Shown here piece by piece: positions 10,221 to 28,623 of a stretch of 64,000 bases of DNA (position 1 is its first letter; each line of letters begins with the position of its first letter). The position numbers and the translations under genes were made by a program. The notes under the pieces were generated by a model. It saw nothing but the letters and a program-made list of their open reading frames with translations, searched no databases and was not told the DNA's origin. Source of the stretch: an uncultured Puniceicoccaceae bacterium (lineage in GTDB: Bacteria > Verrucomicrobiota > Verrucomicrobiia > Opitutales > Oceanipulchritudinaceae); the NCBI GenBank assembly GCA_963933835.1, contig CAWVVV010000002.1, positions 224,001 through 288,000 on the forward strand. The letters are read 5' to 3'.

Positions 10221-12137
10221 CTATTTGATTCTGGCCTTTGATTGAAGGGCAATCATGAGGATGGTTACATCGGTTGGATTTACCCCGCTGATGCGTCCAG
10301 CCTGCCCAAGCGTTGCGGGTCGAATCTCCTCCAGCTTGCTTCTGCTTTCCGCTCTCAATCCATTCACATTACTATAATCAAAATCCTGCGGAAGGCGTAC
10401 GCAATCTGCCTTCGCTAAACGTGCAACGAGTCGATTTCCACGCTCGAGATAGCCCTGATAGCGCACCCGATATAGAACCTCATCCTTTGCATCAGGGCTC
10501 AGTGATGCGAAAGCCTCTGGCAAGCCCTCTGCAGGGGCGCCGCGCCGAAGATGCGTACCCCAGGTATCGCCTTCAAATCGTTCTTTCTCAAGGGTTTGCA
10601 CAGCCGTCATGATCAAAGATGCTTGAGACTCCATCCGCTTTAGACGCGCCTCTGGCGCCAAGCTAAGGGCCCTCGTATGGCCCCCAAGGCGCATCTCAGC
10701 ACTGCCATGGTTAAAGAGCAATCGATGCTCCGCGCGGCTCGTAAACATTCGATAAGGCTCCAAGGTTCCCTTTGTCACTAGATCGTCGATTAAGACGCCA
10801 ATGTAACCCTCATGGCGACCGATGATCAGCGCCTCCTCTCCCCTCACCTTCTGAATAGCATTTACCCCCGCAATAAGCCCTTGAGCGGCGGCTTCTTCAT
10901 AGCCCGAGGTGCCATTGATCTGCCCAGCAAAGAAGAGCCCTTCGACCTTCTTCGACTCTAAGCTCGCGAATACCTGCGTAGGTGGGGCGAAATCATACTC
11001 CACGGCGTATGCAGGCCTAAGCATCTGGGCAGATTCGAGGCCTGGGATCGTTTTCAGCATCTCCTCTTGGATATCGAAGGGCAGACTCGTAGATAAGCCG
11101 TTGATATACCATTCGTCGGTGTTTCGGCCCTCAGGCTCCAAATACAGGCGATGCCCCGGTTTATGGGCGAATTTGACGTATTTGTCTTCAATGCTCGGAC
11201 AGTAGCGTGGGCCTGTTCCTTCAATCATGCCTCCATATAGTGGTGAACGATGAAGGTTTTCTGTAATCAAGTCCCCTGTTTCCTGCGTCGTCGACGTCAT
11301 CCAGCAAGAAACTTGGTCTACGCCCGGCGTCCAACCAGGCAAACGCTGGTCGTTTTGTTCCACGTGGAACATTAGCTCATCATACTTCGTATTAAAAATC
11401 CGTTTACCTTGTTCCACGTGGAACAATGGCTCATCCGACCTCGTCTCATAGAAGCCAAATAAGCTCGGGAGCGTGTCACCAGGCTGTTCTTCAAGCCCTG
11501 TAAAATTAATCGAGCGGCCTAAAAGGCGGCATGGCGTACCTGTTTTGAGTCGCTGGAGTTCAATTCCCGCCTCCTCAAAGCTGCCCGAGAGCGTCTTTGC
11601 AGTGAAATCGCCCATCCGGCCACCTTCCGTCTTATTTGAGCCAACATGCATCATCGCTCGAAGGAACGTGCCCGTGGTGACGATGACTGTTTCCCCTTTG
11701 AAATCGATGTCCAGATTGGTTCGAACCCCTAGAACACGACCTGATTTAAAGATCAGGCCTGTCGCAACCGCCTGAAATACGGTCAAATTCTCCTGACATT
11801 CAAGCCGGTGCTTCATTCTGAGTTGATAAGCCTTCTTATCGCACTGCGCGCGTGGCCCCTGAACGGCCGGGCCCTTCGAGCTATTCAAAAGACGGAATTG
11901 AATCCCACTCACATCGGCATTTACGCCCATTTCTCCGCCAAGAGCGTCAATTTCCCGAACAATGTGGCCTTTAGCGAGGCCACCGATTGCAGGGTTGCAG
12001 CTCATCTGGGCAATTGTGTCCAGATTTCCAGTTAGCAGAAGGGTGCGACCACCCATGCGTGCGGCTGCCAGGGCCGCTTCGCAGCCAGCATGGCCTGCGC
12101 CGCAGATAATCGTGTCGTAGTTGTCCGTTAAGCTCAT
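10221..12137 (-). CDS. mnmG: tRNA uridine 5-carboxymethylaminomethyl modification enzyme MnmG (GidA)
   Basis: [46 protein letters not shown]. Confidence 0.99.
11356..11371. other. parS: parS centromere site (perfect palindrome) inside mnmG
   Basis: TGTTCCACGTGGAACA, exact match to the canonical parS consensus TGTTNCACGTGNAACA. Confidence 0.9.
11410..11425. other. parS: Second parS site inside mnmG
   Basis: TGTTCCACGTGGAACA, 54 bp from the first copy; the palindrome extends to 18 bp (11409-11426). Confidence 0.9.
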
Positions 12138-13501
12138 TTTCCGATGCAGAATGAGCCAAAGAGCTCATCAAGCATCTGCTCGCTGTCAATTCTGCCAACG
12201 ATACGGCCAATTGCTTCGATCGCTAAATGCAAATCAGTTGCGGCCAACTCAATTGAACTTCCCGCCCTGAGCTTCCCAAGAGCTTCTGACACTTTCGACT
12301 TCACCTCCGCAAGTGCAGCTGAATGCCGTGCAGAAACCGCCACGTCAGCATCTTCAGGCACTTTAAAGTCGGTATCAAGATATCTGATGAGCGCCTTTTG
12401 CAGATCATACAGGCCGTCACCCGTTAAGGCTGAAACCCTGATGATATCTACGCTTGAAGGCGATACATCCATCACGCTCGAGGCCTCATCAACCAAATCT
12501 GCCTTATTCAAAACCCGAATCAGGGCTTTCTTTTCAAAATCCTTCAGCGTGTTCGCATCCAAGGCGATATGATCCTCCTGGGCATCAATAATATGGAGGA
12601 TCAAATCTGCCTTTTTGGCCATTTCGAGACTCTTGGCCATCCCGGCTTCTTCGATTTTCGACCCAGAATCTCTCAATCCGGCGGTATCAAAATAGCGAAC
12701 GAGATGCCCGCCCAGGGTGCCACGCACCTCGATGAAGTCTCTTGTCGTGCCTGCTTCTTCGCTGACGATCGCGCGGTCATCAGCGACTAAGCGGTTGAGT
12801 AGGGAGCTCTTACCGGCATTCGGTGCGCCGACTAGGACGACACTAATTCCATCTTGAAGACGATTCCGATACTGCTCCGTCGCCATCAGTTGATCGATTG
12901 CGTTCTGAAAGTCGCTCAATTCAGCCACGGGCCCAGAAACATCTTCTGCGGGCAGGTCTTCATCAGGAAAATCAATGTAAGCCTCTAAGTGAGCCGTCAC
13001 TCTAAGCAATCGCTCTACCAAGTTTGATACATGCTTCCCTAGGGCGCCTGCTAGCTGCTGCTGCGCGATCTTTAGCGATTGCTCACTACGGGCCCGAATG
13101 ACGTCAACGACGGCCTCAGCTTGGGCCAAGTCCATCTTCCCGTTAACAAAGGCTGTTTTAGTGAACTCTCCTGGCTCAGCCTGCCGCGCACCGCGCTGCT
13201 CTAGGTCCTCGAGTAACCGTTGTACAATAAAGGGGCTACCGTGCGAGATCAGCTCCAGCATGTCTTCGCCGGTAAACGATTTTGGTCCAGCGTAGTAGAC
13301 CCAGACGAGATGATCGAGCGTCTTGCCTGAGAGATTACGGTAGTGACTTAGCCGGGTCAGCCTAGGCGCAAGGGTAGGGGAGCGGTCCTTCTCAATAAGG
13401 GCGCCTTCGATGATCGAACGAACCAAGCTTCCTGAGATTCGCATGACCGCGAGGGCTGCTTCGCCCGGCGGCGTTGCAAGAGCTACGATTGTATCGCTCA
13501 C
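12134..13501 (-). CDS. mnmE: tRNA modification GTPase MnmE (TrmE)
   Basis: [31 protein letters not shown]-terminal FCIGK. Confidence 0.99.
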
Positions 13502-13519: not shown

Positions 13520-14599
13520 CTACGACGCTTCGATCGCGGGTGTTTCTTTCTCGCTAGCGGCGAGCGAGCTACCACCGACGACCTTAACCTTGCCGTAAAT
13601 CTCTTGAGTGATTTTCTCAGCAACATCTTGATTCTCAGCAAGATACAACTTTGATGCTTCACGACCCTGGCCAATTAAATTTCCTTCGTAGGAAAACCAT
13701 GAGCCTTTCTTTTCAACGATTTTATGTTCTAGGCCGAGATCCAAAATAGAACCGTTTCGAGATATGCCTTCGTTATACATGATATCGAATTCACAGTCGG
13801 TGAAGGGTGGGGCGACCTTGTTCTTCACGACTTTTAGGCGAGTGCGGTTGCCCACCACTTTGCCTGTGGTGTCTTTGATTTGACCGATGCGACGAATGTC
13901 CATCCGGATCGAAGCAAAGAACTTAAGAGCACGACCACCCGGTTGAGTTTCAGGGCTACCAAACATCACTCCGATCTTTTCTCGGATTTGGTTCGTAAAG
14001 AGAACAACACACTGCGTGCGGCTGATCGCAGCGGTGAGACGACGCATCGCTTGACTCATCATACGGGCCTGAAGCCCTACGGTGTTATCACCAAACTGGC
14101 CATCGAGTTCGTTTTTCGAAACGAGCGCCGCCACCGAGTCGATCACGATGATATCGATTGCGCCGGAACGAATAAGCGTCTCGGTGATATTCAAGGCGTC
14201 TTCACCGCTCTCTGGCTGTGCCACCATCAAGTTATCGATGTCGACGCCGACAATGCGCGCGAAGCGGGGGTCGAGGGCGTGCTCAACATCGATAAAGACG
14301 GCATTTCCGCCCTTGCGCTGAGCTTCTGCAATGAGCGCCAAGCAAAGGGTTGTTTTCCCCGAGGACTCCGGACCATAAATCTCCGCAATCCTTCCTTTTG
14401 GAAGGCCTCCGACGCCGAGCGCTAGATCAATTGAAGGGCAGCCCGTCGGGATGACCTTCACATCCATCTTATTCGAGTCACCCAGCTTCGTGATCGCCAT
14501 AGCGCCGAACTGTTTGTTGATCGCAGCCAAGGCGTGATCGAGGTCTTTGTTCCCGCTACTAATTGGAGCCGGGGTGAGGGTTCGGGAGGATTTAGCCAT
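13520..14599 (-). CDS. recA: Recombinase RecA
   Basis: [35 protein letters not shown]. Confidence 0.99.
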
Positions 14600-14685
14600 A
14601 GAAAATCGGTGGAGTGTTCGTAAGCAGTCAGAGGCTGCCGTTGGTAGTGGGAATGTGAGCAACTTACTTTCCAGAGCAAGTGAAA

Positions 14686-14703
14686 AGTGTTTATTTGTTC
14701 ACT
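14686..14703. promoter_or_regulatory. Imperfect palindrome upstream of recA, candidate LexA operator
   Basis: AGTGTTTATTTGTTCACT; 3 mismatches to TGTTC-N4-GAACA, the motif I recall for Verrucomicrobia LexA. Confidence 0.3.
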
Positions 14704-14777
14704 ATTTATCACCCTTGGTACTTTTTCAGTATTGGTTTCGATTTGCTCAATTCATCCGGCCGCGTTTCCATCTTGAT

Positions 14778-16541
14778 ATGCAGGTCGCTGAAACCGCTGA
14801 AAATCTCCGTGTCGCTCCTCACGCATACTTTTGCGTCTTTAATTCGCGCAACAAGCTCTGGGTTGAAGGACCCCCTTCAGAAACCGGAAAACGCTCGCCA
14901 TTGAGCCTCGCGGGCGACTCGAAGTCTACTGATGTAGAGCAACTTATAGCATCGAACTGGCCAGGGGTAGGAACACCAAAGTCTGTTCTTGGGGGCAGCG
15001 ACACCTCGCCGGGCACGCCGCTATGGCTCGCTCGCTGGGAACATCCGCTTGAGGAAGATCCGCGTCCCGAAAGGGCAGGGGATTGGTTCGCCCTGAGGGG
15101 CCTTAGCAGCGCCATAGAGAGCCAACCAGAGGCATGGGATCCCGTTTGGAAGTCGATCATCGAGACTCTAAATCTCCACGCCATCGAAATTCCTTACCTC
15201 AATTTCGGCCGCAATGAGTTCATTTACCGTTTTCGGACCGACCGCCAACGCAACCGGGAGATCTATCAATCGGACGCGGTTTCAAAAGCGCTCTACCAAA
15301 GCCAACTATGCGCCGCCGTTAAAGCCGCTCGTCGACTGCGTGAAAATACTAGTGGCGAACCCGCCCGGCTGAATTTTGGCCGCATCGAGTACCTTCTACC
15401 GAGTCACTTCGGTTTTTGCCTTGGGGTCCAAAATGCGATCGAACGGGCCTATGAAGTGCTCGCGGCGCATCCCGACAAGCGGGTCTTCATGCTCAGCGAA
15501 CTCATCCATAACCCTTTTGTAAACAAAGACCTACAGAGGCGTGGCTTACATTATCTTCAGACTGACAAAGGCGTCACTCTCGATGATCCCGAAACCGGAA
15601 AACCGTACTGGGAAACCCTCTCCGATAAGGACATCGTCATTGTTCCTGCCTTCGGCGCGACGAACGAAGACAAAGTCCGCCTTGTCCAGCGTGGCCTCCC
15701 ATTCAACGAATACGACGCGACCTGCATGCTCGTTGAAAAAGTCTGGAAGGCCGGGCGGCGCTTCGCCGACGAAGGCTACACTGTAGTGATCCACGGCAAG
15801 GCAGAGCACGAAGAAACCAAGGCGACCTTCTCAAACATCGCCCGCTATGGTCCGGCACTGGTTGTGCGGGATTCGGCTGAGACCAAAATCGTTGCTCAGA
15901 TCATCATGGAAGACGATCCGAAGAGCGGCGAAGCACTCTTCGAAAAACACTTTAAAGCGAAAGCAACAACCGGGTTCGATCCCGCCCGAGACTTGAAGAA
16001 AATTGCCGTCGTCAATCAAACAACCCTCCTGCGTAACGAGACTCTCTCAATCATTGAAGTATTGGAAAAGGCGCTCGAAGAACGCTTCCCGGGGACGCCC
16101 AATCTGCATCCAAAGAACCGCGGAGATACCCTCTGCTACGCAACGCAGGTCAACCAAGATGCTCTGCAAAATGCGCTCGAAGAAGGCATCGACCTTGCTC
16201 TCGTGGCAGGCGGCAAAAATTCGAGCAACACTTTCCAGCTCTACCGTGTCTGCCAAGCATCGATGGGAGACCGGTCCGCTTACATTCAAAGCGAAGAAAA
16301 CCTTTTGAGCAAAGAGCACGTCCTGCACTACCACTTCGCCCAGAATTCGAATGACGAGAAAGCCGGCACCTTTGAAAAACGGGCCATCGATCTCTCAGGT
16401 GAGAATCCAATCAAGGTACTGATTACGGGTGGAGCCAGCTGTCCAGATGGGATCATCCAACAGATCATCACCCGCTATAACAGCTACTTTGACGCGGACA
16501 AACTGCGTCCGATTGAAGCCATTCTCGAAGAGCTTGAGTAA
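14778..16541 (+). CDS. ispH: 4-hydroxy-3-methylbut-2-enyl diphosphate reductase with an extra N-terminal Nudix/Idi-like domain
   Basis: FGFCLGV, LIHN, DATC, HEE, NQTT, DTLCYATQVNQ, GGKNSSNT, TGGASCP; about 200 aa precede the core. Confidence 0.93.
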   Translation: MQVAETAENLRVAPHAYFCVFNSRNKLWVEGPPSETGKRSPLSLAGDSKSTDVEQLIASNWPGVGTPKSVLGGSDTSPGTPLWLARWEHPLEEDPRPERAGDWFALRGLSSAIESQPEAWDPVWKSIIETLNLHAIEIPYLNFGRNEFIYRFRTDRQRNREIYQSDAVSKALYQSQLCAAVKAARRLRENTSGEPARLNFGRIEYLLPSHFGFCLGVQNAIERAYEVLAAHPDKRVFMLSELIHNPFVNKDLQRRGLHYLQTDKGVTLDDPETGKPYWETLSDKDIVIVPAFGATNEDKVRLVQRGLPFNEYDATCMLVEKVWKAGRRFADEGYTVVIHGKAEHEETKATFSNIARYGPALVVRDSAETKIVAQIIMEDDPKSGEALFEKHFKAKATTGFDPARDLKKIAVVNQTTLLRNETLSIIEVLEKALEERFPGTPNLHPKNRGDTLCYATQVNQDALQNALEEGIDLALVAGGKNSSNTFQLYRVCQASMGDRSAYIQSEENLLSKEHVLHYHFAQNSNDEKAGTFEKRAIDLSGENPIKVLITGGASCPDGIIQQIITRYNSYFDADKLRPIEAILEELE

Positions 16542-17520: not shown

Positions 17521-18654
17521 TTAGTTCAGCCGCAAGGGCATGACGACACAAAGGAAGCTGTCTGGAGTGCGAACGACTCCAGGGCTAAGCTCATCTTTGA
17601 ATTCGAAGATAATCTCGTCACGAGTGACCGCTTTTAGCGGATCGAGAAGGAAGCTTGGATTGAAAGCAACCGAGACGTCCGGACCGGAATATTCGACATT
17701 CAAAGAGACGTTCGACTCTCCAAATTCTGGGCTAAAGCCCGTCACCTCAAGTTGGTTTTCCGTCACATTGACCTTCACCGAATTGCTCTTGTCGCTCGCA
17801 ACGAGCGCCGCGCGACTGATGCATTTCGCAAACGACTCGCGGTTCACTTTGAAGTGCTGGTCGTTCTCTTTCGGTATGACTTGGCGGTAGTTCGGGTAAT
17901 TCCCTTCAACCACTTTTGAAACCAGGTAGATGTTGTCCAAAAGACCTGCCTCGGCCGCAGCATCAGCCTCGGTGTTGATCTCAAACGCAACTTGGCGGTC
18001 ATTGAAAGCGATCTTAACGCTATCACCTTGACCGAGCAGACGCTCCACTTCGCCAACCGTCTTTGCTGGGAGGATGAGGTGCCCAGCGTTGTCGTCGGTC
18101 ACTTCGACTTCTTTGCTGATCACCGCGAGGCGGCGACCATCTGTAGCAGCGAGGGTGAGACCATTGCTTTCGAAATTAAAGAAAACGCCGTTCATGATGT
18201 AACGAGTCTCATCAGAAGACTGGGCGTAAGAGACGCTCTTGAGCATGCGGACCAAATCGTCCTGACGGAGCATGAAGATGTGCTGATCGTTGAAGGTCGG
18301 CAGCGGCGGAAACTCCTCCGAGCTGATCCCCATCATGCGGAAAAGCGTCTGACCCGAACTGAGCTTAGCCTGGTGGTTGCTGTAGGTCTCAACTTCGACA
18401 TCCAACGAAGGCAATTCGCGGACAATGCTGAAAAGTTTACGCACTGGCAGGGTGAGGGCTCCTTTTTCGACAACGTCTGCTTTGATTCGGCAACGAATAC
18501 CGAGATCCAGATTTGTCGTCGTGAGCGAAATTTGATCATCGGCAGCTTCGATCAACACATTGCTGAGGATCGGCATCGTAGCACGGGTTCCGACGACGTT
18601 GAGAACTTGCTGAAGGCCACTGGTGAAGTGATCACGATTTATCTTAAACTTCAT
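17521..18654 (-). CDS. dnaN: DNA polymerase III beta sliding clamp
   Basis: [36 protein letters not shown]. Confidence 0.99.
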
Positions 18655-18739
18655 GAATGCTAAGGATTTGAAGGGGCTCAAAGGTGAGGAGCAATCCATT
18701 TTCAAATTGGATCGAAACCGCTTGAGGTTAGGAAAACTA

Positions 18740-22546: not shown

Positions 22547-25486
22547 GTGCCAGCAGCGATGCCTCGATCGGCACAACTCTTCAGCTACACTGATCCTCGG
22601 GAGCTCTGGCTCGAATCGCTCCCCGAATGGTTCGAAACCAATGCCTCTCTCCGTCCTCCGGGAAGCGGCCCGGTCATCGTCCTCGCCCCTGAAGTTACCC
22701 GCCTTGGATGGCTAAAGAAAACGTGGCTCGAACAGGGGGGGCGACCCCTCCTTGGGGTTGAGTTTTGGACGCCAGGAAAGTTGCGGCGCTATCTCCTTGA
22801 TCGCTTAGCCCTCAACACCCAGTTGGCTACGGCGGAAGACCTCGCGCTGATGGTGCGCCTCGTTCTGAAAGATGAGCCGACGGATGCGCCCCTCGGAGTC
22901 ATTGCCCAAAATCCAAACAGCTTCCTCTATGCTTGGGATACGTGGATGGCAGCCCGGGCCGACCCCTCGCTTTTTGCACGGCCTTGGCGCGATCTGCCTC
23001 GTCGACTTGAAAAGGCTCTAAAGCGCATCGACTTGCAAAGCGTGCGTGCGGTCGATGCCGAACTCGCATCTTTCGCCGAACCATCGACGCCCCTGCTGGG
23101 CCCGATCCTCATCGATGGATTCTCGGCCGTTCATTCGAGCCTCTTCCCCCTTCTCACAGCAGCAATGCGCCAATCGGAATCGAGCCTCTGTACTCTACCG
23201 TTTCCGCGAGAACGCAGAATGGAGCTCGTGTGGAACGGCACTTTCGAGAGCGTCATGGAGACAATGGCAGAACTGGCTCCACCCGTGCCCGATATGGACC
23301 GACCATTTGCGACCTGGGCCGAGCGAGCTGAATCAGGGATCGTGGCCGAAGAGAGACCCGAGAAGACGCATTTTCGCCTCTTTGAAACTCGGACCGACGA
23401 GATCACGGCGCTAGCTCAGCGTATAGAAGTTCTTTTTGCACAAAGCGGGGAGGGGACGATCGCGGTCGCCCTGCCTTCCGACCCCTATCTAATCCGCCGC
23501 CTCACCGCTCAACTCATCGAATCGGGGATTCCGATTCACGACAGTTTCGGATTCTTCCCCACTGGCACCGATGCGGAACACCTCTTTGCGGCTTGGGTTG
23601 CTTTTCAGCGCACCGGCCAACTCATCGAGGCCGATTCTTTTATCGACGCGCTAGTGAATAGCGGTGACCTGAGCGCCCTCGAAGCCAAACGCACTCGCCG
23701 AGCCTGGACGACGGCACGTGAGCGAACGCTCAGCGACGAGCTCTCTGTCCTCTCTGCTTATTTGAGACTCGAAGGCGACCAGTTACCCGGCCAGCCATCC
23801 GCCGTTGAATGGGCCAATACGTGGTCTCGCTTGCCCGACAACGCCACGATCGCGCTCTATCTCGAAATCAGCGCACCCGCCTTCGCTCAATGGGATAACG
23901 CGCTCAATTTCGAAGAAGCACGCTCTGGTTGGGATAAGACATGGGAGCATTTCGAGGAGAAGATTGACCGCTCCCGTTTCCTCGAATGGCTCTGGGAATC
24001 CCTTCGTCGGCCTGGACGAGCGCGGGATCAGAGTGCTCGCGATGCCTTTGCACCCGTTCAAATCATCTCCTACGATATGCTCGGCAGCGCTGCTTGGTCG
24101 CAGCTTCTCCTCGCGGGTCTAAACGAACGACTTGTCCCAGCTCCGTCCCGCGAAACCGCCTTTCTTCTACCCGACGCGGCCCACCGTCACCTCTCGAAAA
24201 ATATTGTCGAAGGCTCACAAGGCGAAGGCCATGAAGTGCTTCGCCCTGAAAGTGGATTTCTCCTCGAAGATAGAGACCGTAGAGCCCTCCTGAGTGGTGC
24301 GCTTTTCGATGCCATCGCGGCAACCTCAGATCGTGTTGAACTTTTCGCTACCTATGCGCCCGAGGGAACCGATCGGACCGCCACTGTCCTGAGTGAATAC
24401 TATCAACGACTTTACCGCGCCGCGATGGGGCGAGCCGCCGCCTTCCCGACCACCGGAAAAGCAGTTCGCAATGAGCAGAAAGAAGAGGGTTCTGTATCCA
24501 CAATTCCTCTGCGAAATACGGGTGAAGCCTACGCGCATCGATTCGATCCGGAAACGCCCTTCGATGAGTATTCATTTTCTTATGACAAGGCGCCACCTGA
24601 GCCGCTCACTTTAGGTGCTCGACAATGGGAGGCGTTGCTCAAGCGCCCTGCCACCGTCTGGCTGGAGAGCATTGCTCATCTGCGTCCGCGCGAGGACTAC
24701 AGTGAGCCCGTGCAGCTACCCCTCCTGCGGGGATCAGCGGTTCACCGTCTTTTACGACGCCCCAGTGCGCAAAAGTGGTATCCACTCACCGATAGCGGGA
24801 CCTCATGGCTCGATTCGGTGCGTGAGCAAGCGCTCCGCTGGCAGCGCTTCGTCGAGCAAGCCCATGAGCATGCCGGCCTCCAGCTTTCTCCTCTATGGCG
24901 TGAACAATGGGGCTGGGCTCAGCAACAAGCGCTCGTCCTTGCCAACCTCGTCGCCACTGAAGCGAGAGACCTCTTCCTCGCCACCGAGTATTCCTTGCCT
25001 GATGGCGGGCGGTGGACGTCCGCCGCTGGCGACGCGATTTCCATCCGAGGGCGCATAGACGCTCTCCTCGTCGACAATCCCGATAATCCAAGTACAGCCA
25101 CCGTGATTGATTTTAAGACCGGAGGGGACTCGGCCTTGAAAACGAATAAGCTCGGGCAGGGCGATGGTTTACAACTGCTGCTTTATGGCGGTGCGCTCAC
25201 CGATCTTTGGCAGTGTGAAGTCGGCCTGACGATCGTGAAGCCGGGTGACGCATCCGTTGCTGCGCAAATTTTTCTCTCGGGCGGAGAAGACCCATCGGAG
25301 GCACTCTCTGATCTCTCAACTATTGGACGAAACGGTCGGATCGGTTTCGCAGGTCAAGTGCGCTCAGCGTACGCCTATGTCGGCGAATACCCAATCGCAT
25401 TTGTCGCGCCCCCTTCGGAGATTCTAGTAGAAAAATGGCGACATACACATATCGGACTTAAGTTGCCGAAAGGAACGGAGTCCTGA
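22547..25486 (+). CDS. addB: AddB-like protein with C-terminal PD-(D/E)XK nuclease
   Basis: IRGRIDALL, VIDFKTG, LQLLLY; TGATG coupling to the downstream helicase. Confidence 0.8.
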   Translation: MPAAMPRSAQLFSYTDPRELWLESLPEWFETNASLRPPGSGPVIVLAPEVTRLGWLKKTWLEQGGRPLLGVEFWTPGKLRRYLLDRLALNTQLATAEDLALMVRLVLKDEPTDAPLGVIAQNPNSFLYAWDTWMAARADPSLFARPWRDLPRRLEKALKRIDLQSVRAVDAELASFAEPSTPLLGPILIDGFSAVHSSLFPLLTAAMRQSESSLCTLPFPRERRMELVWNGTFESVMETMAELAPPVPDMDRPFATWAERAESGIVAEERPEKTHFRLFETRTDEITALAQRIEVLFAQSGEGTIAVALPSDPYLIRRLTAQLIESGIPIHDSFGFFPTGTDAEHLFAAWVAFQRTGQLIEADSFIDALVNSGDLSALEAKRTRRAWTTARERTLSDELSVLSAYLRLEGDQLPGQPSAVEWANTWSRLPDNATIALYLEISAPAFAQWDNALNFEEARSGWDKTWEHFEEKIDRSRFLEWLWESLRRPGRARDQSARDAFAPVQIISYDMLGSAAWSQLLLAGLNERLVPAPSRETAFLLPDAAHRHLSKNIVEGSQGEGHEVLRPESGFLLEDRDRRALLSGALFDAIAATSDRVELFATYAPEGTDRTATVLSEYYQRLYRAAMGRAAAFPTTGKAVRNEQKEEGSVSTIPLRNTGEAYAHRFDPETPFDEYSFSYDKAPPEPLTLGARQWEALLKRPATVWLESIAHLRPREDYSEPVQLPLLRGSAVHRLLRRPSAQKWYPLTDSGTSWLDSVREQALRWQRFVEQAHEHAGLQLSPLWREQWGWAQQQALVLANLVATEARDLFLATEYSLPDGGRWTSAAGDAISIRGRIDALLVDNPDNPSTATVIDFKTGGDSALKTNKLGQGDGLQLLLYGGALTDLWQCEVGLTIVKPGDASVAAQIFLSGGEDPSEALSDLSTIGRNGRIGFAGQVRSAYAYVGEYPIAFVAPPSEILVEKWRHTHIGLKLPKGTES

Positions 25487-28400
25487 TGTCTGACCGTCCT
25501 CCGCTGCCTGATCAATTGGAACGTGATCGTTTTTGCACTGAGCTGGAAACGAACTACTCGGTCATCGCCCCTGCTGGAGTAGGGAAAACGACAAGTATAG
25601 TGGCGCGAATCATTGCGATTGCGAAAGCTGATGCACGACGCCTAGAAGATCCCGTGCTCCCGCATCTCGTGGTTGTCACCTATACGAAGAAAGCAGCCGA
25701 CGAGATGTTTTCCCGCGTCCGCACTGAGCTCGACCGTGTTCAACCACACGCCGATGTCCACGCCCACCTTGCGCAGGCATTCTTTGGTACGATTCACAGT
25801 TTTTGCCAACGCCTCCTCTTGCTCGCTGGCCCTCTCTGTGGGTTTCCCAGTGAAGCCGAAGTCGCGACGGATACAGAACGCCTCTGGGAGCGCTTCCGCT
25901 TAGAACTCGGTAGCGCAGCCCTTCCAAGCCTCCCGGATGATCTTAAGCGAGCCTTTGCGATTCATGGGAAGTGGGAGGATGTCTACCTGCTAGCGAAGCA
26001 GTGGCCAGGTCGTCCAACCGAACCGGCCTTGCCGGGTCTACCGCTGCGGGTCAGTGGGGCAGGAGTTCAGGCGGTCGAACCGAAACGAAAGAATAAGTAT
26101 TTAGAACGAGGGAAAGTAGTCTTCGCGCAATGGTTGTCCCAGATTACACTACAATCTAAGGGTGACAATCCACTGCCTTGCCCCGAACCGAAATATAAAA
26201 ATGGGGGGACCGATTTCCAAGAGGCGTGGCGCGACTCGGTTGCACCGCTGAGACGGTGGCGGGCGGAAGCGACGCAATACCTCGCAGCCAAGTTGGCATT
26301 GAGCTTTGTCCAGTATCGTCGACGTGCGGGCCAGTTCACTTTCGATGATCTCATATCATTCTCGTGCCAGTTATTAGAAGATAAGGAGGCCTGTGCGATT
26401 TTAAGGCATCGTGATTGGCGTGTCATTCTAGACGAAGCCCAGGACACCGACCCGCAGCAGTTTGTCATTCTAACCGAAGTCACTCGACCCGTTGAAGCCA
26501 CGGGATCTTGGCTCGATGGCGCAGCCCATGGCCCGAGACCGGGTGCATTCTCCATGGTGGGCGATCCTCAGCAATCAATCTACAGCGATCGCGCTGACCT
26601 AGGCCGCTACTTGGCGGTGCACCAGAGACTCATCGAAGAAGGGGGAGAGGGCGCGACTTTTAGTGTCACGATGCGGTGCCCTGTCAGCGTGGTTGAAAGC
26701 CTCAACAGAGTCTTCCCCTCTGTGCTCAAGCCCGAAGGCCCAGAGAGCCGGCAAGTTAATTACGTCAGGCTCGACAATCCAAAGGGTGCACGCACCGGTC
26801 AAATCGTTCGAATTACTGCGCCATCGCCAGATCCTGATGTGGATGCGAAGTCAGGTCCCAGGGAAGCGGCCAATGTTCAGTCCTTTGCTCGCTGGCTTAA
26901 GGATCTATCGCCGCAGGACTTGGGAACAGATTCTTGGGCGCAGGTGGCGGTGCTTTGTCCGCGTAATCGCTGGCTAGATGCCCTAGCCGAATCGCTCACT
27001 GCGGCAGGTCTCCCCATTCAACAAATTTCACGCAGTGCGACTCGGGCAGGCGATCCAACCTATGCTTGGTTTGCAGCTCTCTTAAGTGTCTTCGCTCAGC
27101 CGAGGGATAGCTTCGAGCTCTATGGTGTCCTCCGCGATGTATTTGGTTTTTCAGACGATCATCTTGTGCAGTTTATTGAACGCACCTACACCCACGGCGA
27201 GGCACATCCGCTGAGAATTGATATGCTGCCTGGTGACATGAAAGGAGCGGTGGCTGACGCGCTCAGAGAATTAAATGCGCTCTACCTGCGCGTCCGCGTG
27301 CTTCCGCTATATGCTGCAGTGGAGTTGATTCTTAAACACTGCCAGCTGGGCGAACGCCTCGTTCAGGTGCCAGGCATCGACCAGCAAGCAGTCGACTCGA
27401 CCATCGATACGCTCAGACAACAAACGGCCGAAGCGGAAAGCCTCCAGAAGAACCTCATTGAATGGGCAGAAGAACAACGGCGAGCCTTGCCCCAGCCCAT
27501 TGATGAAAAAGAAAGTAGTGAAGAAGCCATTACACTAGTGACAGCCCATAAGTCGAAAGGGCTCGGCTTTGATGTTGTCATCCTGCCGTTCTTTTTTAGA
27601 AAGTTCGGAATGCCTCCTGAAGCCTATCCCTGCTTTGAAAGCGGCGGGACAGCGGGACCGAAAATTCTTTTCGGGAGCGACGATAGGGATGAAACCACAA
27701 AGGACTGGCAAGAAACCCGACGCCGTGAGCTCCATGAGCGACTGCTTTACGTCGGACTCACACGGGTGAAGCGTAGTCTTATCCTCTTTGATGACCGGGC
27801 ATGGTGGGCTGATTTACGTGCACAAAAAGGTGTCTCTTGGGCACAGTTAATGAAAGTCGATGATCCTGAGGAACCCAATGCAAAGACTTGGAACGCTCTT
27901 CCCACTCAGCTTGTAGATCTAGATGAAGACGAGGCGCGAGCGGAGGCGTCGCCAGAGCCTCCTGGCGCGAGCATAGTTGCGCAGTCGATTGAAGCGGGAT
28001 CTAGTCCAACCTTCTGGCGACGGGTGACGCCGAGTAGTCTTCAGCTCCATGAGGAACCGAGCGAACGGATCGAACCCGACTTGAGTAGCGACGAACGCTT
28101 CCCGGAAGAAATTCGCGAACTCTACCTCAAGGATCCGGCGGCCTACGGCAACTGGTGGCACGATATGATGGAGCATGCTCCATGGGAGATGGACGAAGCG
28201 CTTATCCGTATCCATTTCGAGAATACATTGAAAATATGCCCCGATCCAAATCGAGGGGCGAAGGAACTGGATACTTTTCTAAGCAATGATCTTTTTCGGC
28301 AACTTTCCCAAGAAATATGGAAAGTGTATACCGAAGTTTCCTTTCTCTCCGGAGACACGTCATCGAAAACTGGATACGAAGGGTTTATCGACCTTCTTGC

Positions 28401-28623
28401 CGTTAAGGTCGAATCAGATGATTGGCTGATTATCGACTGGAAAACTGATCGAATGGGAAGCGAAGATCCGATGGGTGCACTACTGCATGCCTATGGGCCA
28501 CAACTTGCAGTGTATGATGCGACGATGCAGCAGTCGCTAGGAGAGAAGGGTCAAAGCCTCCTCTACAGCACAGTGACGGGAGAAACGGTGTTCCTCACCG
28601 CAGATGGACGCGGATCATCTTAA
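25486..28623 (+). CDS. addA: AddA-like UvrD helicase-nuclease
   Basis: APAGVGKT, LDEAQDT, VGDPQQSIY, TAHKSKGL, LLYVGLTR, GFIDLL..IIDWKT..QLAVY. Confidence 0.88.
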   Translation: MSDRPPLPDQLERDRFCTELETNYSVIAPAGVGKTTSIVARIIAIAKADARRLEDPVLPHLVVVTYTKKAADEMFSRVRTELDRVQPHADVHAHLAQAFFGTIHSFCQRLLLLAGPLCGFPSEAEVATDTERLWERFRLELGSAALPSLPDDLKRAFAIHGKWEDVYLLAKQWPGRPTEPALPGLPLRVSGAGVQAVEPKRKNKYLERGKVVFAQWLSQITLQSKGDNPLPCPEPKYKNGGTDFQEAWRDSVAPLRRWRAEATQYLAAKLALSFVQYRRRAGQFTFDDLISFSCQLLEDKEACAILRHRDWRVILDEAQDTDPQQFVILTEVTRPVEATGSWLDGAAHGPRPGAFSMVGDPQQSIYSDRADLGRYLAVHQRLIEEGGEGATFSVTMRCPVSVVESLNRVFPSVLKPEGPESRQVNYVRLDNPKGARTGQIVRITAPSPDPDVDAKSGPREAANVQSFARWLKDLSPQDLGTDSWAQVAVLCPRNRWLDALAESLTAAGLPIQQISRSATRAGDPTYAWFAALLSVFAQPRDSFELYGVLRDVFGFSDDHLVQFIERTYTHGEAHPLRIDMLPGDMKGAVADALRELNALYLRVRVLPLYAAVELILKHCQLGERLVQVPGIDQQAVDSTIDTLRQQTAEAESLQKNLIEWAEEQRRALPQPIDEKESSEEAITLVTAHKSKGLGFDVVILPFFFRKFGMPPEAYPCFESGGTAGPKILFGSDDRDETTKDWQETRRRELHERLLYVGLTRVKRSLILFDDRAWWADLRAQKGVSWAQLMKVDDPEEPNAKTWNALPTQLVDLDEDEARAEASPEPPGASIVAQSIEAGSSPTFWRRVTPSSLQLHEEPSERIEPDLSSDERFPEEIRELYLKDPAAYGNWWHDMMEHAPWEMDEALIRIHFENTLKICPDPNRGAKELDTFLSNDLFRQLSQEIWKVYTEVSFLSGDTSSKTGYEGFIDLLAVKVESDDWLIIDWKTDRMGSEDPMGALLHAYGPQLAVYDATMQQSLGEKGQSLLYSTVTGETVFLTADGRGSS

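Follow-up and report, generated by a model that had tools for sequence, protein, structure and literature searches.

Two identical copies of a perfect 16-bp palindrome, TGTTCCACGTGGAACA, lie within the mnmG (gidA) coding sequence of an uncultured Puniceicoccaceae bacterium (Verrucomicrobiota), and together they very probably form the parS centromere of its chromosome, as comparison with related genomes indicates. The same bases would also be translated, as part of a predicted flexible loop of the MnmG enzyme. Intragenic parS sites are known from Pseudomonas; what appears new is dual coding within mnmG across a phylum, together with probable switches in the pairing of ParB and parS. In the literature we found no description of parS in mnmG/gidA or of ParABS in this phylum; the site tables of Livny et al. 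2007 (PMC2168934) may give coordinates of this kind.

Two palindromes in the mnmG coding sequence

Positions below refer to the window, the 64,000-nucleotide stretch of DNA that was analysed, unless a contig is named. Its mnmG gene (10221..12137, minus strand) is an intact ORF of 638 amino acids with a TIGR00136 score of 729 bits (cut-off 525) and a GidA fold in the AlphaFold2 model. It overlaps its upstream partner mnmE (12134..13501, minus strand), and is followed downstream by genes encoding a PhoB-like regulator and a PhoR-like kinase, and then by trmB. In reading order, the first palindrome (11410..11425) is translated as L238-FHVEQ and the second (11356..11371) as M256-FHVEQ, both in frame and spaced 54 bp apart. 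An earlier note, made from the letters of the window, had proposed two perfect parS-type sites here, and both are indeed exact copies of TGTTCCACGTGGAACA, which differs from TGTTTCACGTGAAACA at two positions.

No third match to either parS consensus (up to two mismatches) occurs in the 1.94-Mb, 97%-complete assembly, and TGTTCCACGTGGAACA is the sole repeated sequence among 36 distinct perfect 16-bp palindromes in the genome; 1.4e-4 copies are expected by chance under a fifth-order Markov model. Each copy is covered by near-identical contigs of three public runs (X4, X5, X6), for which neither a gap nor a joint is recorded there; X4 and X5 are flagged as near-identical and possibly the source of the window DNA. 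RNA run X12 covers mnmG at 10900-10998 and 11138-11293 only, outside the loop. A dispersed palindromic repeat element of the kind inserted in genes (Rickettsia RPE/REP-like) is ruled out, as there are two copies only, both in the mnmG loop.

The palindromes belong to two units of 54 bp, or 18 codons each (11343..11450, minus strand), described in the earlier note as a duplication with diverged flanks. The identity of the palindromes stands, but the flanks have diverged only in part: the units share 38 of 54 bases, including 22 of the 38 outside the palindrome (17/25 on the 5′ side, 5/13 on the 3′ side). Sixteen further genomes of the order also have two copies, four of them family members with identical 54-bp spacing; their 5′ flanks match at 2-10 of 25 positions, and the visible duplication is therefore peculiar to the window genome, where it would reflect later conversion between the copies, or chance. 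When the spacers of two-copy loops were compared by profile in search of an ancient tandem duplication, no consistent trace emerged (17 scored, four too short; best p 0.03-0.06, most above 0.3), leaving a single ancestral duplication behind such loops unsupported.

A predicted flexible loop in a conserved enzyme

Both copies fall in a 45-residue loop of insertion domain 2 (residues 230-274; 11316..11450, minus strand), which replaces a 9-residue loop in E. coli; the earlier note's lengths for the interval from FSF to QVPC (9 in E. coli, 45 here) are confirmed. The AlphaFold2 model of MnmG (101-sequence alignment) has a mean pLDDT of 93.4, a confidently folded enzyme core and a TM score of 0.87 to Aquifex GidA (2ZXH). 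C47 and C313 (the RYCPS cysteine, C277 in E. coli) are retained, so that fold and cysteines resemble those of E. coli MnmG (3CES, 9HIP) and 2ZXH. In contrast to E. coli, the loop is 36 residues longer, and the span from KTGT to RYCPS, 82 residues in E. coli, reaches 391 in relatives. Residues 231-260 form a low-confidence stretch (blocks at 57, 45 and 57, with residues 235-247 below 50), a drop that may reflect a shallow alignment there; the loop is predicted to be flexible within an otherwise well-folded enzyme.

The earlier note had also held that the insertion exists to host and amplify the centromere, which is borne out for the extra copies but not for the basic insert of 18 residues. Additional copies lengthen the loop: the median KTGT-to-RYCPS span is 100 amino acids with one copy, 116 with two and 133 with three (Spearman 0.76 over 92 genomes, kin among them not being independent). 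The motifs bordering the loop, D231-T232-R233 (90-96%) and G268-W269-x-P271-G272 (88-93%), are conserved with free codon choice, and a span of 97-100 residues is kept in 21 of 24 same-class genomes without a loop site. Since these motifs are conserved at the protein level and the span outlasts the site, the basic insert is not just a vehicle for parS.

Probable origin, ParB and a candidate ParA in the window genome

On this contig the cumulative GC skew reaches its minimum at 25900..25970 (C2:249934, window position 25934), a distance of 14.5 kb from the sites, or 0.75% of the genome; the minimum is likely near the replication origin, the origin being placed here by skew alone. Elsewhere in the assembly only contig C4 shows a comparable turning point, a maximum (C4:157728). 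The origin-proximal position that the earlier note gives as usual for such sites is supported, and dnaN, an origin-region gene, lies nearby (17521..18705, minus strand). No DnaA-box cluster was seen near the skew minimum, where one near-match occurs at 23434.

Some features of the surrounding genes may be recorded here. The skew minimum (~25934) falls inside an addA-like ORF (25486-28623); dnaA lies at C4:126762-127244, ~31 kb from the skew maximum and hence near the likely terminus; and an ispH/lytB-like ORF (14547-16541) has ~240 extra N-terminal residues before its family match, which begins at residue 245-285.

A genome scan of the kind suggested in the earlier note recovered a canonical parB, a ParA-like gene and no further parS site; parB, whose absence that note would have counted against its proposal, is thus present. 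The single ParB gene lies on the same contig, 230 kb from the sites, and its product matches PF02195 at 110.6 bits and TIGR00180 at 177.9 bits (cut-off 58.45). Aligned by exact spacing to Caulobacter ParB, with which it shares the DNA-binding helix, it carries the CTPase motif GERRxRA and Q162, R173, N178 and G201, residues of the parS type rather than the Noc type (numbering as in PMC7383237). A Noc-binding site was rejected: the protein has R173, S179, Q184 and G201 and scores 246 bits against a Noc cut-off of 315, and the site differs from TATTTCCCGGGAAATA, the type bound by Noc (Q173, K179, K184, R201).

The candidate ParA is a 258-aa Walker-A protein (AAA_31, 163 bits; below the NF041546 cut-off) encoded apart from parB. 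The genes for this ParA-like ATPase, scpB and dnaA are on contigs other than that of the sites, and parA-like, parB and scpB genes are unlinked to each other and to the origin region.

Distribution of the loop site and its link to parB

The loop was read in 208 mnmG genes, a non-random sample from three sources: 130 genes from the 150 matches listed of a 301-genome phylum search, 38 of 44 genomes chosen in families with a split match, and 40 of 41 additional genomes of the same order. The counts leave out one gene in which the motif was unmatched (G306, which has an FHVEH site) and a divergent second mnmG in G325. The latter (G325:C1, L233), whose contig is 1.8 kb long and whose 81-residue segment lacks a site, is likely assembly contamination.

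A loop site (up to two mismatches) is found in 92 of 100 same-order genes, exact in 84, with one copy in 72 loops, two in 19 and three in one. It also occurs in 14 of 30 genes from other orders of the class and in all 48 from other site-bearing lineages, and in none of the 30 genes of a short-loop group (85-90 residues from KTGT to RYCPS), which forms one clade (support 100) when the loop is left out of the tree. Named records sharing the loop of the class relatives are Verrucomicrobiia, Akkermansiaceae, Methylacidiphilales and Verrucomicrobiales; the other clades in the sample are presumably those named Kiritimatiellia and Lentisphaeria.

Genome-wide, 52 of 61 same-order genomes contain 71 exact sites, 56 of which lie in the mnmG loop; at least one is in the loop in 48 of the 52 genomes, and all are there in 39. 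Many of the exact sites outside the loop flank mnmG. In one family (f10) the site is mostly gone from the loop and, in several genomes, has moved to the 3′ part of mnmG, where a second parS place lies ~330 codons after KTGT (L077-L083); one member (G081) has three sites in mnmG, and eight of the 15 loci read in this family have none in the gene.

Presence of the loop site goes together with parB. Among 103 genomes scored, 51 have both, 15 parB only, one the site only and 36 neither, which means that all but one of the 52 genomes carrying a loop site have a chromosomal-type parB, and that no site is found in 36 of 37 genomes without parB, 29 of the 37 belonging to the short-loop clade. As there are only 4-5 independent contrasts between parB and loop site, a pair test is not significant (median p 1). 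The one exception with a perfect loop site and no parB found (G307) is 95% complete in 160 contigs, and the 15 of 66 parB-bearing genomes without a loop site indicate that the mnmG location is not obligatory. Searches of the short-loop genomes, several of them complete (L132-L160, L240, L241), found no chromosomal-type parB in 29 of 29; nine of these have weak ParB_N matches of 21-44 bits, where the chromosomal type scores 103-118. This suggests a whole class without ParABS. One genome in which no parB was found (G090) keeps a remnant two mismatches from the general consensus, and two small genomes, likewise with no parB found, retain the peptide with drifted codons (FHVRQ, FHVKQ).

Where mnmG and the origin have parted, the sites are found with the origin. 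G303 has kept parB and has a loop without a site; its mnmG is at 250 kb, and both of its sites lie 210 kb away, at the skew flip (~460 kb). In complete site-bearing relatives, the skew turns from negative to positive across mnmG in three of five and within 200 kb of it in one, the remaining case (G023) being ambiguous.

These observations bear on the alternative that ParB, or a ParB-like protein, acts here mainly as a regulator or roadblock for the mnmE-mnmG-phoBR-trmB genes, segregation being achieved otherwise, e.g. by SMC alone. A response-regulator gene does lie 1.2 kb downstream of the sites, parA and parB are unlinked in the window genome, and the cited part of PMC7022226 reports that P. 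aeruginosa ParB represses genes beside parS3 and parS4. The same part of that source, however, attributes such repression mainly to intergenic sites upstream of promoters and describes Spo0J as without effect on genes next to B. subtilis parS; the sites in the window lie 0.7 kb inside an ORF, far from a promoter. They are, moreover, the only sites of the genome, and in G303 they follow the origin, not mnmG. We therefore regard regulation as the main role as improbable, and retain the centromere reading. The earlier note's suggestion that ParB spreading might also modulate mnmG and the phoBR-like genes drew no support from the analysis and has weak precedent.

Selection on the DNA letters of the site

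The earlier note had suggested a synonymous-site test across the phylum, and the codons of FHVE prove to be frozen rather than freely varying. TTC CAC GTG GAA encodes 173 of 185 FHVE tetrapeptides, where 6.6 would be expected from each gene's own codon use; with one FHVE per family, the figures are 54 of 57 and 2.0. In 100 mnmG genes of the order, 302 codon columns are conserved in 85% or more of the genes; ranked by the share of the majority codon, the four FHVE columns of the site come first, at 0.98-0.99 (median over the 302, 0.45; next highest column, 0.87).

The reading frame, in turn, is free. The 213 loop sites in the 208 genes are read as FHVE in 188 cases, in the VPRGT frame in 10 and in the CSTWN frame in 15; off-frame copies occur in 15 genomes of seven families, eight of these genomes being without any FHVE-frame copy. 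Codon use and frames together indicate that selection is on the letters of the DNA and not on the peptide, and the loop peptide is likely a by-product of the DNA signal.

That selection instead keeps an FHVE(Q/H) peptide, e.g. for contact with tRNA or MnmE, its likeness to parS being incidental, is very unlikely. FHVE is 90-95% conserved in the order, and F and Q outlast decay of the DNA site in other orders (FHVRQ, FHVKQ, FxxxQ). Against this stand the frozen synonymous positions, the loss of the peptide in genomes without parB and the absence of the loop from the MnmE-contact stretches that the part of PMC12397908 at hand names; above all, the reading of the same DNA as VPRGT or CSTWN, and of variant sites as CATWH or VSTWK, largely refutes a peptide role.

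Variant palindromes track ParB residues

In three lineages, variant palindromes track DNA-contact residues of ParB, so that loop sites and ParB are genetically coupled. The co-variation set comprises 198 genomes of one further order (that of G068), with sites of three types that never occur together in one genome. The canonical site is present in 152 of 173 genomes outside two genera (g73 and g82), and in none of the 25 inside. The variant TGTGCCACGTGGCACA is found in seven genomes (3/3 of g73, 4/22 of g82) and the variant GTTTCCACGTGGAAAC in 12, all of g82; the six g82 genomes without a site are exactly the six in which no mnmG was found. Both variants lie in the same mnmG loop and carry symmetric changes that keep the palindrome, at position 5 of each half-site or at positions 7 and 8. 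Variant loops hold up to six copies, lengthened in frame to as many as 391 residues from KTGT to RYCPS, and the sites are translated as CATWH or VSTWK, the latter being GTTTCCACGTGGAAAC.

The ParB proteins of 64 genomes were aligned. Those of TGTGCCACGTGGCACA genomes have His at N178 in seven of seven cases and fall into two separate clades (AU p 8e-6 against a single clade, the group having been defined before the tree). Those of GTTTCCACGTGGAAAC genomes have Tyr162, a one-residue insertion before R173 and Gly181 in ten of ten, a count of the genomes with a readable helix that leaves out G400 and G402. Canonical loops of the same order go with Q162 and N178 in nine of nine, as do all 31 ParBs of the window's own order. 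Q162 and N178 are among the parS-contacting residues conserved in ParB and Noc, according to the part of PMC7383237 considered here. The relevant loci are, for TGTGCCACGTGGCACA, L236, L237 and L263-L278 (His178 ParB: L260, L262, L279-L283, L301, L302) and, for GTTTCCACGTGGAAAC, L309, L310, L312, L314-L316, L320, L323, L324 and L328-L330 (ParB: L284-L298).

Counted by descent, these are three events rather than 17. Each pairs a change in the protein with a change in the site; only an experiment could show more convincingly that the loop is read by ParB, which would likewise bind the loop sites in the window genome. Our literature search found no paper on ParB/parS specificity switches of this kind.

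The same co-variation tells against a role in mRNA, in which the two copies would pair into a long stem tuning mnmG translation or decay: a 17-bp stem is indeed predicted (-49.3 kcal/mol, z -5.65), but pairing is inevitable between two copies of one palindrome, which makes the fold a by-product, and with a single copy in 72 of 100 same-order genes, conservation of exact letters rather than of pairing, sites outside mnmG as well and site changes that track ParB residues, this role is scarcely credible.

Comparison with known systems

The closest parallel is P. aeruginosa, whose parS2 and parS3 are origin-proximal 16-bp palindromes identical to TGTTCCACGTGGAACA. In the part of PMC4368675 cited here, these two are its highest-affinity ParB sites, one origin-proximal parS is necessary and sufficient for segregation, and nine of ten predicted sites lie within coding sequences. 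Its sites are, however, spread over several loci, whereas here all are in one enzyme loop, whose position is kept across the phylum, whose copies alter the length of the protein and whose frame is free.

A known change of specificity, from ParB to Noc, was ascribed to R173Q, T179K, A184K and G201R (Jalal et al. 2020, PMC7383237, as excerpted). There, as here, specificity changes map to DNA-contact residues; there, the product is Noc, a protein with another job, whereas the switches described above touch Q162 and N178, leave R173 and G201 unchanged, and seem to re-code the chromosomal centromere itself.

A parS site also occurs in the MnmG loop outside the phylum. A collection scan for the TGTTT form at narrow spacing, with phyla that use the TGTTC form outside the survey, placed TGTTTCACGTGAAACA in this loop in nine alphaproteobacterial assemblies, eight of them Sphingomonadales (nine of 13 scan matches; L246-L248, L250-L253, L255, L256). 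Unlike the sites described here, TGTTTCACGTGAAACA is read as VSRET, the loop is not lengthened (81 residues), and the site is one of two or three around the gene. An independent origin is likely, and suggests that the loop readily accepts such sites. In one alphaproteobacterial assembly, mnmG and its surroundings hold 13 exact sites in a stretch of ~3 kb. As for published accounts, PMC13371061 names a Caulobacter gidAB-parAB operon, PMC10197239 describes a parS scan of Akkermansia and, in the part considered, leaves the host gene unnamed, and the main text of PMC5815017, as far as it was covered, does not mention gidA.

Discussion

On the centromere reading, and by analogy with established ParABS biology, ParB-CTP clamps would load at the two loop sites and spread, and the loaded ParB, together with the ParA-like ATPase and SMC-ScpAB, would segregate the origin. 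More loading capacity, or redundancy, is the likely gain from a second copy. An ancestral single site may have become fixed in a loop already tolerant of insertions because mnmG stays near the origin; further copies would have arisen by local duplication or new mutation, the need for the enzyme holding them in frame. Loss of parB, or a move of mnmG away from the origin, would be followed by departure of the site from the loop.

A broader reading seems to us somewhat more probable than its contrary: that most of the phylum carries its whole centromere in the mnmG loop, and that ParB and palindrome have switched together three times, giving natural chromosomal pairs orthogonal to the near-universal one. 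It includes copies gained as in-frame insertions of up to 300 residues, the switching of every loop copy, the replacement of N178 by His twice and that of Q162 by Tyr, with neighbouring changes, once.

Among bacteria chromosomal parS hardly varies, and natural, repeated ParB/parS switches would therefore offer testable predictions on the ParB recognition code; if the broader reading is true, they amount to a two-position extension of that code. Orthogonal ParB/parS pairs are wanted for multi-colour DNA labelling (PMC11109969, PMC11798528). For annotators, FHVEQ, VPRGT, CSTWN or VSRET in origin-proximal proteins can be parS read-through rather than protein motifs.

For the phylum itself, a DNA signal would dictate part of a conserved enzyme throughout, with proof that is unusually clean (three frames and frozen synonymous sites), and the mnmG loop likely provides both a centromere and an origin marker in a group whose dnaA, parA and parB genes are scattered.
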